Below are positions 34,162-47,308 of a DNA stretch of 64,000 bases, one piece after another (positions within the stretch are counted from its first letter, which is position 1; each line of letters begins with the position of its first letter). The DNA comes from Parcubacteria group bacterium GW2011_GWC1_45_13 (GTDB lineage: Bacteria > Patescibacteriota > Minisyncoccia > UBA11713 > 2-01-FULL-45-33): NCBI GenBank assembly GCA_001001285.1, contig LCKG01000004.1, positions 1,957 through 65,956 on the forward strand. The letters run 5' to 3'. The notes under the pieces are model-generated. The model was not told the DNA's origin. It saw only the letters and a program-made list of their open reading frames with translations, and ran no database searches. A program made the position numbers and the translations under genes.

Positions 34162-35418
34162 TTATATCTGTTTTATATCTGCGCCTATGGAGCGAAGCCT
34201 ATAATCTATATTTTCGTATCCTCTCTCAATTTGATAAATATTTCCAATACTTGTTTCTCCGCTAGCTATAAGTCCGGCGATTATAAACGCCAAACCTGCA
34301 CGAATATCAGGGCTTTCCAGAGCTCTCCCGGACAATTTAGTAGGCCCGTAGACTATGGCCCTATGCGGATCGCACAGCGTTATCCGTGAACCCATTTTAT
34401 TCAAATCCTGAATATAATTCAACCTCCCTTCAAAAACAGTCTCATGCACCAAACTCTGTCCTTCAGCCTGGGTAAGCAAAATAGTAAAAGGAGCTTGAAG
34501 ATCCGTTGGAAAACCGGGGAATTCTTTGGTGGTGACATTGCTCGCGCGCAAAGTTTTTTTATAAGCATCTTTTCCGCCAAAGGCGGACCAACCTTTGGCT
34601 GGAAAAATAATAGAATTATTTTCCAAAACATACTCCACGCCTACATTGAAAAGCAAAACCAGAAAAGTCGACAGTTCTCCCGCAACGAAATTCTTTATTC
34701 TTAAATTTTTTCCGAGAAGCGCTCCCAAGATAGCGAAACTCCCAGCTTCAATTCTATCTGGCGGTACGATAAATCGCGTGCTATAATTAAGAAGTTTCCC
34801 TGATCGTCCTTCTATTTTTATAGTTGTGGTGCCGGCGCCCGCGATTTGAGCGCCATTGGCATTAAGAAAATCGGCTAAATATTTAATCTCGGGTTCAAGC
34901 ACAGCATTTCGTAAAATAGTAGTTCCTTTTGCTAAAACAGCGGTCATAATCAAAGCTTCCGTTCCAGTCACCGAAGGGATTTTAAACGTGTAATCAACTC
35001 CGAAAAGTCCTTCCGGAGCAGTGATTTCATAATCTGCCGGAGCGCTCTTCGACAATTTAGTTTTTGCTCCCATGATTTTCCAGCCATCCAAAAATACATC
35101 AATTGGGCGCTCTCCAATGACACATCCACCTGGATGAGGAAAAGCGACTTTGCCAAAACGCGCGAGAGCCGCACCAACCGGTAAAATCGATGCGCGAAAT
35201 TTTTTTGCTATTTCGTAATCAATCCTCCCGTCCGCATCCAATTTATCAAGAAGCTCCTGCATTCTTTTTACGTCTTCAATATTTGGTAAATTTTCAATTT
35301 CAATCTTTTCTTTAAATAAAACAGAAGAGGCTAAAACAGGCAGCGCCGCATTTTTACTGCCGTTGATTTCTATCTCGCCTTCCAGTGCCCTGCCTCCCTT
35401 TATTAAAAATTTTGTCAT
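34162..35418 (-). CDS. murA: UDP-GlcNAc 1-carboxyvinyltransferase
   Basis: GSKNAALP, PGGC.IG.RP, PGFPTDLQ, DIRAG and IERGYE motifs. Confidence 0.97.
   Translation of the reverse strand: MTKFLIKGGRALEGEIEINGSKNAALPVLASSVLFKEKIEIENLPNIEDVKRMQELLDKLDADGRIDYEIAKKFRASILPVGAALARFGKVAFPHPGGCVIGERPIDVFLDGWKIMGAKTKLSKSAPADYEITAPEGLFGVDYTFKIPSVTGTEALIMTAVLAKGTTILRNAVLEPEIKYLADFLNANGAQIAGAGTTTIKIEGRSGKLLNYSTRFIVPPDRIEAGSFAILGALLGKNLRIKNFVAGELSTFLVLLFNVGVEYVLENNSIIFPAKGWSAFGGKDAYKKTLRASNVTTKEFPGFPTDLQAPFTILLTQAEGQSLVHETVFEGRLNYIQDLNKMGSRITLCDPHRAIVYGPTKLSGRALESPDIRAGLAFIIAGLIASGETSIGNIYQIERGYENIDYRLRSIGADIKQI
34573..34602. repeat. Family D 30-nt double-hairpin insert in murA
   Basis: TCCGCC-AAA-GGCGGA-CCAACC-TTT-GGCTGG adds PAKGWSAFGG. 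Confidence 0.82.
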
Positions 35419-36369: not shown

Positions 36370-36426
36370 GCTTAACTCGTCTATCCGAGATTGACGACTT
36401 TTTATGTGTTTAGTAAACTTATAGTG

Positions 36427-36654
36427 ATGGATTTAATACAAAAGAAATATCTCACCATTCATCAAGCCGCCAAATTAATAGGCGTTACCGCGCTTACGCT
36501 TAGAAATTGGGACAATCTGCGCAAATTTCAAGCAGCCAGGCACCCCATAAACAATTATCGGGTCTATACTTTAGAACAAATTGAATCATTGCTTAAAAAA
36601 TTAGGACTGCCTAAGCCTGCCAAGAAATTGGTTATAAAGATTTTAGAGGATTAG
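36427..36654 (+). CDS. MerR/excisionase-like HTH protein
   Basis: LTIHQAAKLIGVTALTLRNWD and RHPINNYRVY. Confidence 0.85.
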   Translation: MDLIQKKYLTIHQAAKLIGVTALTLRNWDNLRKFQAARHPINNYRVYTLEQIESLLKKLGLPKPAKKLVIKILED

Positions 36655-36671
36655 TAAGGTTTATTAATATT

Positions 36672-36959
36672 TTGGACATTATACGACAAAATCAGAACCT
36701 TTTTTGAGCAAAATCCCAACTGATTTACCCCTTCATTCACCCCTTCATCGGCTCTGCCTCGGAATGAAGGGGTAGCTCTGTTGATTTGCCTTATGTTTAC
36801 TGGACTTTCTAACCTTCGCTCTTCAAAATCCCAAACCCGACTTCACTCCGCTACGCCCCATTCCACGCTTGTGCTGTTTTCCACGAAAGTCCTCCTGTGG
36901 AGGACTGGCTCGCCGCCCAGCTGGGCGGCTCGCAGGTCGCCGGAATTCCTCCCCTCAAA
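36672..36959 (+). repeat. Left copy of ~290-bp inverted element flanking the island
   Basis: Aligns along its length with the reverse complement of 39880-40170; 36831-36879 is identical but for one indel. Confidence 0.88.
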
Positions 36960-37087
36960 CCCCTCCTTTCGGCTGGTCCTTAGATGAGGTAGATAAGCAG
37001 TTATCCACAGGTGAGTACTTTACAAGAATGTGATATTGGTATAGGATCATACTATCACTTAATAAACTATCAATTAGTATACAAAAT

Positions 37088-38740
37088 ATGGAAAAAAACC
37101 AAAAAACTGAGACCATAGATATCACACCGGATAAGAGTATTTATCACAAAATTGGGGAAGCTAATTATTCGATCTCTGATGCACTTGCAGAATTAGTAGA
37201 CAACTCAATTGATGCTGCGAATGAAGATGGCGTCGAGATATTTATTGTCTTAGATAAGAAGGGAGAAAAAATCATTGTCGAAGACAACGGGCAAGGGATG
37301 AGCAAAGAGATAGCTTCGAAGAGTCTAGTACTTGCCTATTCTAAAAAACATGATGCACTAGGCGAGTTTGGCTTGGGTTTAAAATCAGCTTGCACAAGTC
37401 TCGGAACAATTTTTGTTATAACAAGTACTCCAAAAGGCTCTGAAGAAAAATATACTCTCGAATATAATAAGGAGCAATTTTTACAATCAAGTGATTGGCA
37501 TAAGTATCCTCTTACAATCATAAAGGCTCCGAAGAATGAACACGGAACAAAAATAGAAATTAGTAGTTTGAAGATCAAATTATATGATGCACTTGTTACG
37601 CGTCTCAAGGAGGACTTAGCAAAAAGATACGGCCCATATATTGAGCATAACAATGTTGTCATTAAAGTCGGCTTGAGGAGAGAGACGGCTAAACCGTGCG
37701 TACCTAGCGAAAATAAACTAGTTCCTGACTCGAAGAAAGATTTCTCATATATGCTTTCAAAAGGAAGCACTATTACGGGTTGGTATGGTCTTTTAGAGGT
37801 TGGATCACAAAAACAAAGCGGTTTCAACCTATTCCGAAGAGGACGATTAATAAGAGCGTCTGAGAAACTTGGTTATAACTATCACCCACACCTTATGAGT
37901 GTTGCGGGGGAAATAAATTTGGATTCCGTACCAGTAACACACAATAAACGAGAATTCATTATTGAATCTAGCGAATTTAAAGAATTTATTGAAAAATTTT
38001 GGGGCGATCAAACTGAAAAATATTTGGGGTACAAAGTTAAGGGTAAAATCGATGAGATAACAAAAACCGCCAGAGATCGATCAAGCCAAGAAAAAGCGGA
38101 TAGTATGCCAGTTGAAAGAAAAGAAACAATAAAAAATAACTTATTGAATGCCCTTAACCGCCTCGATGAATTCAAAGAATTAGCTTACCCAGATCTATAT
38201 CAACCTAAAAAGAGGTCTGCAACTGGGAAGGAAGATTTTAAGGAAACCAGAGAAACTGATTTGCGAGTAGCTAAAGAAGAGGAAGTGCCGCTTACAAAGG
38301 AAGAAAGGGATCAAAGAACACCCAAAAAGACACAGCCCAAAACAGCCAAGTTTATAATGGTTGGGGGGAAAAAATTCAAATTTGATTTCTTTCTAAGAAA
38401 TCTGGGGAACGATACTATCGATAAGGAAACTATTATTAATCAAGAAAATGTTATCGAAATATATATTAACACGGGATTCAAGGGTTATGGTTTAACAAAG
38501 GATACTGATTTTTATTCTACCTTCCATATAGCGGAGGCTATTGCCGAACTTTATGTTAAAGAAGCTAATCAAAAGGTAGAAAGGATTTTTGAGCTAAGAA
38601 ATAGTCTCATATACGAAGTTGCATCTTTAATATACGAGGAAGAGGAATATAAAAGGCTTGAAAAAACTGAAAAAGAGTTGGCTGCAGTTACTGACAAAAA
38701 AAGAGAGCTTGAAGAAAAGAGAGCAAGAACGAGTTTATGA
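37088..38740 (+). CDS. GHKL (HATPase_c/MORC-like) ATPase with C-terminal coiled coil
   Basis: AELVDNSIDA, EDNGQGM, GEFGLGLK and HGTKI Bergerat boxes; S5-like region (RRGRLI, THNK). Confidence 0.9.
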   Translation: MEKNQKTETIDITPDKSIYHKIGEANYSISDALAELVDNSIDAANEDGVEIFIVLDKKGEKIIVEDNGQGMSKEIASKSLVLAYSKKHDALGEFGLGLKSACTSLGTIFVITSTPKGSEEKYTLEYNKEQFLQSSDWHKYPLTIIKAPKNEHGTKIEISSLKIKLYDALVTRLKEDLAKRYGPYIEHNNVVIKVGLRRETAKPCVPSENKLVPDSKKDFSYMLSKGSTITGWYGLLEVGSQKQSGFNLFRRGRLIRASEKLGYNYHPHLMSVAGEINLDSVPVTHNKREFIIESSEFKEFIEKFWGDQTEKYLGYKVKGKIDEITKTARDRSSQEKADSMPVERKETIKNNLLNALNRLDEFKELAYPDLYQPKKRSATGKEDFKETRETDLRVAKEEEVPLTKEERDQRTPKKTQPKTAKFIMVGGKKFKFDFFLRNLGNDTIDKETIINQENVIEIYINTGFKGYGLTKDTDFYSTFHIAEAIAELYVKEANQKVERIFELRNSLIYEVASLIYEEEEYKRLEKTEKELAAVTDKKRELEEKRARTSL

Positions 38741-38810
38741 GACCCAAAGATATAGGAAAGACAAACATAAAGGTCGATACGATAATAATAAATTATAATT
38801 TAATACCACA

Positions 38811-39233
38811 ATGAAGAAAAAAGTTTTTGTTAGCTTCGATTATGATAATGATAAGCACTACAAATATCTTCTTGAGGCATGGGACGCGAATCCTCAATTT
38901 AATTTTGTCTTCAATGACGCGACACCAGAGGAAATCGATAGCTACAATATCGGTAGAATCAAAGCGGCCTTAACCTTAAAAGTTAAGGAGGCAGACTACA
39001 CACTAGTTCTTGTAGGTAAGGAAGCGAATAAGACCCATAGACACAGTCGACTTATTGGCTTTAAAAACTGGATCAACTTTGAGGTTGCTAAGAGTAAAGA
39101 GCTTGGAAACAAAATCGTTGCCGTCAAATTAGATAGAGAGAATGAATCTCCAGAGGAGCTGCTCGACTCAGGTGCTTCTTGGGCTATGAGTTTTTCTCAA
39201 GCCGCAATTATCAAGGCATTGAATGATGCCTAA
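38811..39233 (+). CDS. TIR-domain protein (ThsB/DUF1863-like)
   Basis: KVFVSFDYDND, TLVLVG and WINFEV with the catalytic Glu. Confidence 0.9.
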   Translation: MKKKVFVSFDYDNDKHYKYLLEAWDANPQFNFVFNDATPEEIDSYNIGRIKAALTLKVKEADYTLVLVGKEANKTHRHSRLIGFKNWINFEVAKSKELGNKIVAVKLDRENESPEELLDSGASWAMSFSQAAIIKALNDA

Positions 39234-39243
39234 GTGAATATCT

Positions 39244-39849
39244 ATGAGCATAAGCGACGATAAAAAACTAGAGACGCTTAACGATCACTACAAAGATACA
39301 TTCGCTCAAATACGTGATTATATCTCACTGCGTGATAAGTTGTTGATCTGGATTCTCTTGGTAGCTGCAGTGATGTTATTCGAAGTTTTTTCTCCGAGTG
39401 AGGCCGGCTTAGCTATCGCACAATTTGCGTCCGAAAAGGTCGGCCTTAATGGAGCCTTAATTAACACCTCATTCATCGGAAGCGTCATTTGGTTTTTGAT
39501 GCTCGTTTTGACAATGAAATATTTTCAAACAGTGGGGTTAATTGAGAAACATTATGATTATATTGAAAAAGTAGAGGACGCTATAAGAAAAAACTACGAT
39601 GGAGCTACGGGAATCTTTTCTAGAGAGGGACGACACTATCTCGAAAACTATCCTCTCTTTTCTGATTGGTCGTGGCTCTTATATACGATAATTTTCCCGA
39701 TACTATTAGTCGCCGTTTTGTTATATAAAATATATAATGAGGTTTTTATTTCAGGTTGCAGCGTGATTTTCTATATAAATCTTTTAATATTTATTTGCAT
39801 AGTTACGTCAACGATTCTTTATTTAAGGATGTTGCATTTTAAAAAATAG
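39244..39849 (+). CDS. Four-TM membrane protein, putative effector
   Basis: Four hydrophobic segments; starts 10 nt after the TIR gene. Confidence 0.8.
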   Translation: MSISDDKKLETLNDHYKDTFAQIRDYISLRDKLLIWILLVAAVMLFEVFSPSEAGLAIAQFASEKVGLNGALINTSFIGSVIWFLMLVLTMKYFQTVGLIEKHYDYIEKVEDAIRKNYDGATGIFSREGRHYLENYPLFSDWSWLLYTIIFPILLVAVLLYKIYNEVFISGCSVIFYINLLIFICIVTSTILYLRMLHFKK

Positions 39850-39879: not shown

Positions 39880-40170
39880 TTTGAGGGGAGGAATTTCGGC
39901 GACCAAGCGAGCCGACCAGCAGGGCGGCGAGCCAATCCGCCGGAGGCGGATATTGTGGGAAACAGCACAAGCGTGGAATGGGGGCGTAGCGGAGTGAAGT
40001 CGGGTTTGGAATTTGAGGGAGGCGAAGTCAGAATAGCGAGTAATGACAGGCGGATTTGAGAACGGAGGGTAGTCATTCCGAGGTAGGGCGAATGACTACC
40101 TGAATGACTAGGTAAATCAGTCAGGATTTTGCTCAAAATGAGTCCGAACAGTATCATAAAGACACCACCA
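39880..40170 (-). repeat. Right copy of ~290-bp inverted element
   Basis: Reverse complement matches 36672-36959. Confidence 0.88.
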
Positions 40171-40189
40171 AATTTGATTTGCATCAGAA

Positions 40190-40227
40190 TTGACCGAGCC
40201 CGCGCCAAAGGCGCGGGCGAGGTCAAT
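40190..40227. other. Strong hairpin just 3' of tRNA-Ala
   Basis: TTGACC..GCCCGCGCC-AAA-GGCGCGGGC..GGTCAA; terminator-like or repeat. Confidence 0.55.
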
Positions 40228-40248
40228 CTTTCTTCAAATTCGGAATTG

Positions 40249-40319
40249 TGGACCCGAGGGGAATCGAACCCCTATTTTCCGGATGCAAACCGGATGCTCT
40301 ACCACTAAGCTACGGGCCC
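40249..40319 (-). tRNA. tRNA-Ala(TGC)
   Basis: Acceptor GGGCCCG/CGGGTCC with G3:U70; anticodon arm TCCGG-TTTGCAT-CCGGA. Confidence 0.95.
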
Positions 40320-45403: not shown

Positions 45404-47308
45404 TTATTTCTTATCCTCTCCCTCTTCTTTAAAATCGGCGTCTTTGATGTCAGGGCCCGATTTATCTCCGCCACTGCCATCTTCCGGTTTTTTATACATC
45501 GCTTCGCCGATTTTGGAGAGAGATTGGGCGAGCTCCGTTTCAGCGGAGCGGATTCCAGCGACATCGTCTCCGTCTTTAACTTTTTTAAGTGCCTCTATTT
45601 TTTGGCTAACTTCGTCTTTTATCCCCTGTTCAATTTTGCCTGCCTTGCCGTCAGGCAGGTCACCCGCATCGCGCAACGACTTTTCTGCGGTGTAAACCAA
45701 AGCGTCCGCGCGGTTTTTGGCTTCAACCAATTCTTTTTTCTTTTTATCGTCTTCGGCGTGGAGTTCCGCGTCCTTTTTCATTTTTTCAATTTCATCTTTA
45801 GAAAGCCCCGTGGAAGCTTCAATCCTGATGGATTGCTCTTTATTCGTCGCCTTGTCCTTGGCTTTTACGGATAAAATTCCGTTTGCGTCAATATCAAAGC
45901 TGACTTCCACCTGCGGCATGCCGCGAGGCGATGGAGGAATCCCATCCAAAATAAATCTGCCGAGGGTTTTGTTATCTCCCGCCATCTCGCGCTCGCCCTG
46001 CAAAACGTGAATTTCCACGGAAGTTTGGTTGTCTGCGGCGGTCGAGAAAACCTGTGAACGCGCTACTGGCACCGTAGTATTTTTTTCAATAATTTTGGTC
46101 ATCACTCCCCCCAAGGTCTCAATACCCAAAGAAAGCGGGGTGACGTCCAAAAGCAAAACGTCCTTCACGTCGCCCTGCAAAATTCCGCCCTGCACCGCCG
46201 CGCCTACTGCCACAACTTCGTCCGGATTTATGGAAAGATTAGCTTCTTTCCCAAAAAGTTTTTTAATGCCCGCTTGAATCGCTGGCATTCTCGTTTGGCC
46301 CCCGACCAAAACTATTTCGTCAATTTCCTGCATTTTAAAACCCGATTCATCCACCACTTTCTTAGTAATCTCAAAAGACCTATTTAAATAATCTCCTACC
46401 AGCTCTTCCAGTTTGGCACGGGTGAATTTCATCAAAAGATGCCGCGGGCCGGAGGCGTCGGATGTGATGAAAGGAATATTTATTTCCGTCTCAACCGTGG
46501 TGGAAAGCTCGTGCTTGGCTTTCTCCGCAGCTTCTTTCAGGCGCTGAAGAGCCAAAACATCCTTGGTGACATCAATGCCCGATTCTTTTTTAAATTCCAC
46601 AGCGATATATTGGATAATTTTTTGATCAAAATCGTCCCCTCCCAAATGCGTGTCGCCTCCCGTGGCACGGACTTCAATGGTATCATCCCCAATTTCCAAA
46701 ACGGAAAGGTCGAATGTGCCTCCACCGTAATCGTAAACCACTATTTTTTCATTTTTCTTTTTATTTAATCCGTAGGCTAAAGCCGCGGCTGTGGGTTCGT
46801 TTAAAATCCGGCGAACTTGCAAACCAGCAATCTCGCCGGCCGCTTTGGTTGCTTGTCTTTGGGCATCGTCAAAATAAGCAGGCACGGTAATGATGGCTTC
46901 TTCAATTTTTTCTCCCAGCTTGGCTTCGGCGTCGGTTCTTAATTTCGCTAAAATCATCGCCGAAATTTCTTCCGGCCGGTACCATTTTTCATTTATTTTT
47001 ACGTCCACTCCGCCGTTGGCCGATTCTTTGATTTCATAAGGCAACAAGGTTTTATCGCGTTTAACTTCCGTATCGCCGAATTTCCTGCCAATCAATCGTT
47101 TTACCGAAAAAATGGTGTTTTTGGGGTTGGTCACTGCCTGTCTTTTTGCCAAAAGGCCGACCAGGCGCTCGCCTGTTTTTGAAAACGCGACCATTGAGGG
47201 CGTGGTGCGCGCGCCCTCCGCGTTTTCCAATATTTTCGGGACTCCCCCTTCCACGACCGCCATCGCGGAGTTGGTCGTTCCCAAGTCTATTCCTAAAATT
47301 TTTGCCAT
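45404..47308 (-). CDS. dnaK: Chaperone DnaK
   Basis: [21 protein letters not shown] and NPDEVVA motifs. Confidence 0.99.
45639..45659. repeat. Family B 21-nt palindrome inside dnaK
   Basis: CCTGCCTTGCCGTCAGGCAGG; removal restores GGT GAC AAA ATT (GDKI). Confidence 0.93.

Follow-up and report, generated by a model that had tools for sequence, protein, structure and literature searches.

A conserved TIR and four-transmembrane gene pair, likely a Thoeris-type defence unit, in a tRNA-targeted island of a Patescibacterium

Beside a tRNA-Ala gene of a Parcubacteria group genome lie three genes, for a GHKL ATPase, a TIR protein and a small membrane protein, which an initial annotation had put forward as one undescribed defence module. 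The locus raises the question of which of the three belong together, and of how what they form relates to the Thoeris systems already described. The window analysed was a stretch of 64,000 nucleotides, and the three-gene locus was located on contig C4 of a host genome assembly of 756 kb. In the analysis the TIR and four-transmembrane (4-TM) genes emerged as a conserved pair, likely acting as an anti-phage system of the Thoeris type, with the MORC ATPase most likely a separate passenger. The observed basis is the coupling of the two genes, the insert signature of the TIR, its intact Glu91, the predicted four-helix topology of the membrane protein and the conserved inner face of the latter.

The island at the tRNA-Ala gene

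The features of the locus, with the evidence for each in parentheses, were as follows.

36391..36654, + strand: MerR-type HTH gene, host flank outside the island (adjoins the empty site in G414 and G415; in G419 follows the same upstream gene)
36673..36677, no strand: TGGAC 5-bp direct repeat, left copy, the left junction of the island (empty sites, run-contig joints)
36702..36959, + strand: ~260-nt GC-rich repeat, left copy, containing hairpins, directed into the island (folding z -2.5; relatives on contig C6 of G000, in G413 and at both ends of L011)
37019..37047, + strand: sigma70-like promoter candidate TTTACA-17-TAGGAT, 5' of the ATPase gene (motif scan; kept in L011 and L014)
37088..38740, + strand: prokaryotic MORC-family GHKL-S5 ATPase, 550 aa, before a variable cargo slot (domain, fold, S5 motif)
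38811..39233, + strand: ThsB-type TIR, 140 aa, W87xxxE91, predicted signal synthase (PF08937, PADLOC ThsB1, 8v6t)
39036..39086, + strand: signature H76-x5-IG-xx-NW-xx-FE, with an insert of ~10 residues just before the catalytic helix (TIR alignment)
39244..39849, + strand: 201-aa membrane protein with 4 TM segments, family unnamed, predicted effector (hydrophobic segments, AF2 model)
39880..40138, - strand: ~260-nt repeat, right copy, inverted, reading into the island (repeat search)
40177..40239, no strand: GC-rich hairpin flanked by the right repeat and the tRNA gene, possibly a terminator (no call in the terminator scan)
40248..40319, - strand: tRNA-Ala(TGC), whose 3' end at 40249-40253 (TGGAC on the + strand) is the right junction and the insertion target

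The three co-oriented genes of the initial annotation were recovered as open reading frames on the + strand, with 70 nt between the ATPase and TIR genes and 10 nt between the TIR and 4-TM genes, and the inverted repeats and the adjoining tRNA-Ala gene that it described were likewise found. The AT-rich composition that it noted is real but only moderate: the GC contents of the ATPase (36.4%), TIR (39.7%) and 4-TM (35.8%) genes rank at the 5th, 14th and 4th percentiles among 481 long ORFs, whose mean is 44.3% with an sd of 4.7.

The three genes sit in a 3,576-bp insertion at the 3' end of tRNA-Ala. Its extent and the 5-bp repeat were established from empty-site joints. In two genomes of the same genus, G414 and G415, the MerR-HTH gene is joined straight to the tRNA-Ala 3' end, and contigs of runs X18 and X19 (the latter from a diverged relative) pass from 36672 directly to 40249, skipping 3,576 bases and sharing 5. 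The 5-bp repeat of the island is identical to the last bases of tRNA-Ala. Since the MerR-HTH gene is found beside the empty site, it was assigned to the host flank and ruled out as an excisionase of the island. No integrase was found within the island, and the five serine-recombinase homologues all lie elsewhere in the genome.

The two ~260-nt inverted repeats share 77% identity over 266 nt and lie 24 nt (left) and ~110 nt (right) inward of the junctions; no Rfam family matched them. Further copies of the repeat family occur outside the island, a third on contig C6 of G000 and another in G413, each a single copy reading into toxin-antitoxin or defence genes. Lying inside the junctions and occurring as single copies at other sites, the repeats were ruled out as unique terminal repeats. 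Sigma70-like sites over the region were not in excess (12 against 10.8 by chance); the candidate at 37019..37047 is predicted from its sequence and conservation to act as a promoter.

The TIR gene and its membrane partner

The TIR protein was matched by PF08937 (E 3.2e-11), PADLOC ThsB1 (E 3e-15) and 8v6t (E 0.004). The WxxxE catalytic glutamate reported earlier was confirmed in the motif W87INFE91, with E91 invariant in 7/7 aligned TIRs. A 10-residue insert (H-x5-IG-xx-NW) precedes the catalytic helix; in the alignment, each of the six TIRs known at that stage to be linked to a 4-TM gene carried it, against 0/13 other ThsB TIRs. The insert-bearing TIRs form one side of the TIR tree, with weak support (28/71). 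Insert-less ThsB relatives at 32 to 48% identity have partners that include TPR-S and SLATT/DUF4231 proteins.

The presence of the insert predicted the neighbouring gene. The 4-TM gene was next downstream in 20/20 records of insert-bearing TIRs, amounting to ~12 non-redundant groups, since near-copies occur among them (L076/78/81/83/84 with L035; L079/80/82; L087/88). Beside insert-less ThsB TIRs it was found in 0/20 (0/13, then 0/7), where the partners were SLATT, 8xMP, caspase-like, TPR-S, PDC-M50A or unnamed proteins. The paired loci included L002, L003, L058, L034, L035 and L036; the two genes of L003 are separated by 548 nt, and the TIR of L078 is truncated. Three TIR-only searches were run blind to the effector. 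Among viral sequences, the 4-TM gene lay next to the top 3 of 9 matches; a nucleotide pattern for this motif, drawn up after seven of the sequences were known, found 12/12 viral contigs with the TIR and with the 4-TM gene 0 to 6 nt downstream, ten of them new records in about four groups; and a TIR profile over 400 Patescibacteria genomes gave 3 matches, all (3/3) with insert and effector. The TIR and bare 4-TM pair thus recurs in other genomes, in bacteria of several lineages and on viral contigs, as the initial annotation had suggested checking.

It is very improbable that the pair is not anti-phage, or that the 4-TM protein is a toxin or transporter that hitch-hikes with the TIR. Such a reading gains from the divergent 4-TM family members that exist without ThsB, but the order and spacing of the pair are kept in Patescibacteria, Chloroflexota, Poribacteria and viral contigs at 25 to 52% effector identity, and the pair often lies in R-M islands or phage accessory positions. 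Its neighbours include type I R-M genes (L034, and L067 by ORF reading), Dnd-like and HNH genes (L003) and a terminase (L035).

For the third gene, the four TM helices read from the sequence were borne out by four hydrophobic segments and a four-helix AF2 model (pLDDT 87), and the absence of SIR2, SLOG or Macro domains by the lack of any match in Pfam, PADLOC or NCBIfam. The 4-TM family comprises 924 representatives at 50% clustering, with no consistent match in the same three libraries when 39 members and 149 members were searched. A fold search of the model returned no Foldseek match at E ≤ 0.001 and nothing beyond generic helical bundles (Z ≤ 10.4), while Atlas structures reached TM ≤ 0.33 by query; these blank searches do not amount to a new fold. 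The search for a longer fused form of the effector found none, which is weak evidence. Effector matches were absent from plasmids (three queries), phages (one query) and 19 genomes of the same family, and viral scans with single proteins returned nothing.

Members of the effector family also occur outside the pair. Besides this locus, effector-side searches reached L001-L007, L025, L033/34, L058, L063 and L064; of these about 11 to 12 loci, this TIR was upstream in four (L002, L003, L034, L058) and missing in eight. At L001, a close effector homologue near type I R-M genes is flanked instead by a DUF6602 gene and a TIR_2 protein, and in seven divergent members, mostly from Poribacteria and including two broken ones, ThsB is missing from the neighbourhood.

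Within the effector, 23 columns are conserved at ≥0.8, with 17 in the N-terminal and TM2-TM3 segments and none in the two outer loops. The residues conserved there include H15, Y16, R30, Y93, Q95, R102, Y104, Y106, H108, E111, R127, E128, G129 and Y132, and in the predicted topology the polar and aromatic ones would face the cytoplasmic side. This distribution bears on a reversal of roles, in which the 4-TM protein would be a membrane sensor of DNA injection or of a phage membrane protein that switches the TIR on by contact, the TIR then depleting NAD+. No nucleotide-binding domain is recognised in the 4-TM protein, and a TIR insert serving as a docking surface would also account for the strict pairing; the available text of the preprint on further Thoeris types cautions that unverified types may hold NAD-depleting TIRs (10.64898/2025.12.03.692087). 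However, the outer loops are the least conserved parts of the membrane protein, the TIR belongs to the small stand-alone ThsB proteins of PF08937, the signalling class of verified Thoeris types, and across nine pairs it is more conserved than the effector (38 to 84% against 25 to 52% identity). A sensor role for the 4-TM protein is hence considered quite unlikely, and the 4-TM protein is treated below as the predicted effector.

The MORC ATPase and the slot behind it

All four Bergerat boxes that had been read in the ATPase were present (E35xxDNxxDA, D66xGxGM, G92xxGxGxK and T154), with key residues invariant in 92/92 aligned homologues. In Pfam, HATPase_c_3 matched at E 1.6e-20 and Morc6_S5 weakly, below the cut-off. 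The S5-like region also held, with the weak Morc6_S5 match joined by the MORC S5 motif GhXhhpXXRhl at residues 245-255, present in 86/92 aligned rows, and by a MORC-like fold (Foldseek matches of the model to MORC3, MORC4, SMCHD1 and Hsp90 at E ~1e-14). Because of the fold matches and the S5 motif, as defined in the available text of PMC2292703, the ATPase is a prokaryotic MORC. Consistent with the earlier reading, no nuclease family matched it in Pfam, PADLOC or NCBIfam; the alpha/beta domain at 419-492 was fold-searched within the whole model only. The C-terminus of the model is a single 50-residue helix (499-548).

The ATPase family yielded 409 homologues among 8000 scored candidates, and of the homologues listed, 12 of 120 have a sigma70-region-4 HTH at the C-terminus, several with a DnaA-type HTH in addition. 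In 400 class and 400 phylum genomes there were no other full-length copies; the three matches were a shorter relative, one with a PEP-utiliser domain. The four GHKL motifs, the S5 fold and the sporadic distribution are common to this ATPase and prokaryotic MORC proteins, as are R-M and nuclease neighbours, found here at the related loci L012-L014. Unlike the MORC systems set out in the available text of PMC2292703, the island ATPase has no SF2 helicase, methylase or nuclease alongside. Nor was an MZA system present: MzaB scored 36 bits against a cut-off of 850, over the N-terminal part only, and MzaA, C, D and E were absent from the island.

The travelling unit is two genes, TIR and 4-TM, and not three, and the ATPase is probably not a required part. 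It lies beside the pair in 1/20 records, namely this locus alone, and was not found in the flanks of the other 19 (1.3 to 6 kb, some ended by contig ends). At family level it was absent from six cellular genomes that bear the pair (G421, G422, G186, G264, G383 and G1212), where the best ATPase match (E 7e-20) covered the N-terminal ATPase part only. With its relatives elsewhere heading other cargo, a three-gene module was rejected. Of the module first proposed, the TIR with its bare 4-TM partner therefore stood, while the inclusion of the ATPase, and its suggested role as sensor, found no support.

Seven metagenome loci of the ATPase were recovered, five at 84 to 96% identity and two at 66%. 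Their cargo varied. In L011 (89%) and L016 the ATPase is followed by PDC-M50A and ThsB, in L015 by another ThsB and a membrane protein, in L017 (96% over the 54 C-terminal residues seen) by a PDC-M48B metallo-beta-lactamase and in L014 by PD-(D/E)XK and HNH genes; in L012 and L013 (66%) it is located behind R-M genes. L011 has the same frame as this locus, repeat-promoter-ATPase-cargo-repeat: its two contig ends bear a related arm in identical, inverted copies, and the cargo is PDC-M50A and two unrelated TIRs. Since the DNA diverges directly after the ATPase stop codon in L011 and L014-L017, the ATPase precedes an exchangeable slot. Most likely, then, the MORC ATPase is a separate passenger that heads a repeat-bounded island before an exchangeable defence slot, and it probably supplies the promoter.

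Different TIR modules occur at three of the five closest ATPase loci. The slot is filled by a ThsB module, with three different effectors, in 4/6 close loci (84 to 100%, including this one), compared with ThsB of any kind in 5/140 other genomes of the class, in a sample of few, near-identical ATPase loci, some with a common sample prefix. This unexplained excess keeps a functional link open at low probability: the ATPase might be an optional ancillary partner of Patescibacteria ThsB TIRs, acting as sensor, chaperone or primer for any Thoeris-like module located behind it, as Cap2/3 do in some Thoeris operons. As precedents, the available text of PMC2292703 describes paraMORC4 GHKL ATPases fused or adjacent to TIRs, and that of PMC5651269 describes plant MORC1 binding inactive R proteins, two TIR-NB-LRRs among them. 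The counts of the pair argue against such a partnership (19/20 records without the ATPase nearby), as do the cargoes of L017 and L014, the R-M position in L012 and L013 and the smallness and redundancy of the sample. In addition, TIRs behind the ATPase at other loci are just 21 to 29% identical to the TIR of this locus, the HTH ends of listed homologues point to DNA, and the ThsB-type TIR here lacks the Hx[ST]xD motif that follows strand 1 in paraMORC4-linked TIRs. An ancillary role is accordingly judged unlikely, and the same holds for its stronger form, in which a nuclease-less MORC would head a Patescibacteria cassette as the shared primer or sensor of interchangeable TIR modules, like plant MORC1. 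The reading of the ATPase as a separate passenger is therefore retained.

Proposed mechanism and relation to known systems

The predicted course of events is inferred from the verified Thoeris types V and VII, as is the role in phage defence: the TIR would sense infection by a phage and convert NAD+ to a signal of the cyclic-ADP-ribose type. The signal would bind the cytoplasmic face of the 4-TM protein, in pockets between effector subunits; the bound oligomer would then open and breach the membrane, and the infected cell would be killed or stalled. As a weak guess, the signal may be canonical cADPR or a variant of it, because SLATT and TPR-S proteins are the partners of some of the nearest insert-less TIRs, pairs that resemble types VII and VIII, which use cADPR.

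The insert may set the product or the partner of the TIR, since it predicted the effector in every record. The pair offers a small two-gene test case for Thoeris messengers, with the insert as its handle. To our knowledge, every new Thoeris effector so far has come with a defined NAD-derived messenger, some common to plant or animal immunity. The presence of the pair on viral contigs suggests a use in phage-phage conflict, and the viral versions can be cloned without recourse to the uncultured host. In addition, the locus illustrates how a reduced-genome Patescibacterium varies its defences, by means of an island targeted to a tRNA gene and bounded by repeats, in which the MORC gene is fixed and the slot is exchanged.

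In the broad sense of Thoeris, the locus has a stand-alone PF08937 TIR above the cut-off with a catalytic Glu and a conserved adjoining effector gene (20/20), and no CBASS, Pycsar, pAgo or Avs genes were found in the island. Two named candidates also pair a TIR with a small membrane protein. In L011 and L016, PDC-M50, a PADLOC candidate, takes the place that the pair has here after the ATPase, but no PDC-M50A match was obtained for the effector or 38 homologues and hhalign was not significant, whereas the positive control L011 scored E 3e-54. For 8xMP/RipA (PF24838), Pfam gave no match to the effector or 38 homologues, and hhalign gave E 0.13 to a 3-sequence alignment, near an unrelated control (E 0.2); 8xMP is the nearest named Atlas cluster, at a score of only 0.80, and is no more than a lead.

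The December 2025 preprint of Yirmiya et al. annotates, in its available text, 29 putative Thoeris types, several with TM proteins, and verifies type V (ThsB with ThsF/DUF2270, 3 TM, 3'cADPR) and type VII (ThsB with ThsH/SLATT, cADPR) (bioRxiv 10.64898/2025.12.03.692087). It gives as further effectors DUF6650 (VI), a TPR-CMP hydrolase (VIII, cADPR), an ion channel (X) and a hydrolase (XI). The earlier statement that TIR signalling to a bare membrane effector does not match a known Thoeris type is therefore outdated. Types V and VII share with this locus a stand-alone PF08937 TIR and a small membrane protein without SIR2, SLOG or Macro; the effector here differs in its four predicted TM helices, and the TIR has a clade-specific insert. 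PF10028 of type V had no match in 39 effector members at E 0.1, and its profile was blank in five genomes with the effector family. SLATT/DUF4231 of type VII had no match either, with hhalign to one SLATT protein at E 0.7. Types I, II, III and IV (SIR2-SLOG, TM-Macro, SLOG and caspase) are set apart by the lack of Pfam, PADLOC or NCBIfam matches and by the helical 4-TM model, which fills the 201 aa, and types VI, VIII and XI by the lack of such Pfam or NCBIfam matches in 39 and 149 effector members. For type X no ion-channel family matched, a weaker distinction, as it depends on the description "ion channel" alone.

Type IX (ThsJ) and the other TM configurations of the preprint possibly contain the same effector family, as far as its available text goes; the chance that the family is listed there is about even. 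No other paper in the openly accessible literature searched names ThsJ, and none describes the pair or a MORC-ThsB system. That the pair is an unlisted Thoeris type is accordingly no more than a tentative proposal, and it is unlikely that, beyond this, the His-bearing insert would have the TIR make a new ADPR-derived messenger gating a membrane effector of a new family, or that the MORC link also holds. With types V and VII verified and several further TM proteins annotated in the preprint, the bare-membrane-effector architecture is already known; within it, the pair is marked by an unnamed effector family and the diagnostic TIR insert that accompanies it.

Repeat copies and recombinases

The ~260-nt repeat occurs twice in the window, and further copies were found at three other loci:

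window 36702-36959, repeat copy
window 39880-40138, repeat copy
L008:5796-6105, repeat copy
L057:3197-3513, repeat copy
L011 (89% identical ATPase, other cargo), a copy at both ends

A ~125-nt core was conserved, and both arms of the hairpins were found to vary jointly from copy to copy. Each copy seen points into accessory defence or toxin-antitoxin DNA. From the translations, the GC-rich mini-palindromes present within the repeats gave the impression of resembling short in-frame insertions in two genes:

window 34162-35418, MurA gene with insertions
window 45404-47308, DnaK gene with insertions

Large serine-recombinase homologues numbered five in the 756-kb source genome (contigs C19, C28, C18, C2, and C9), with that on C19 surrounded by accessory genes. 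By eye, a LAGLIDADG-like ORF was noted at L053:717-1175, close to the tRNA cluster of the same-genus genome G414.

Relatives of the MORC-family ATPase

A shorter MORC relative, of about 425 aa, was present in three Patescibacteria:

L010:1126-2394
L031:1480-2763, here as a fusion with PF00391, the PEP-utiliser mobile domain
L032:1495-2760

In all three, the next gene encoded a similar protein of ~370-390 aa, which had no Pfam match in L010 and L031, the two scanned. Together they possibly form an undescribed two-gene system. Among the 120 ATPase homologues listed, 12 (within P0108-P0140) carried a C-terminal sigma70 region-4 HTH, several with an additional DnaA C-terminal HTH.

ThsB-type TIRs

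Two insert-bearing TIRs had ~60 extra proline-rich residues at the N-terminus, possibly a sensor or else an over-called start:

L087:1321-1920
L088:1318-1917

Immediately 5' of the ThsB module, a LexA-like HTH-peptidase gene, assigned by ORF reading rather than domain scan, was seen in 5/8 other Patescibacteria cases (L086, L091, L093, L095, and L096). At five loci, the gene right after the ThsB TIR encoded an 8xMP/RipA-type protein (L038, L039, L042, L091, and L094; PF24838 confirmed in the first three), a Thoeris-like pairing that recurs.
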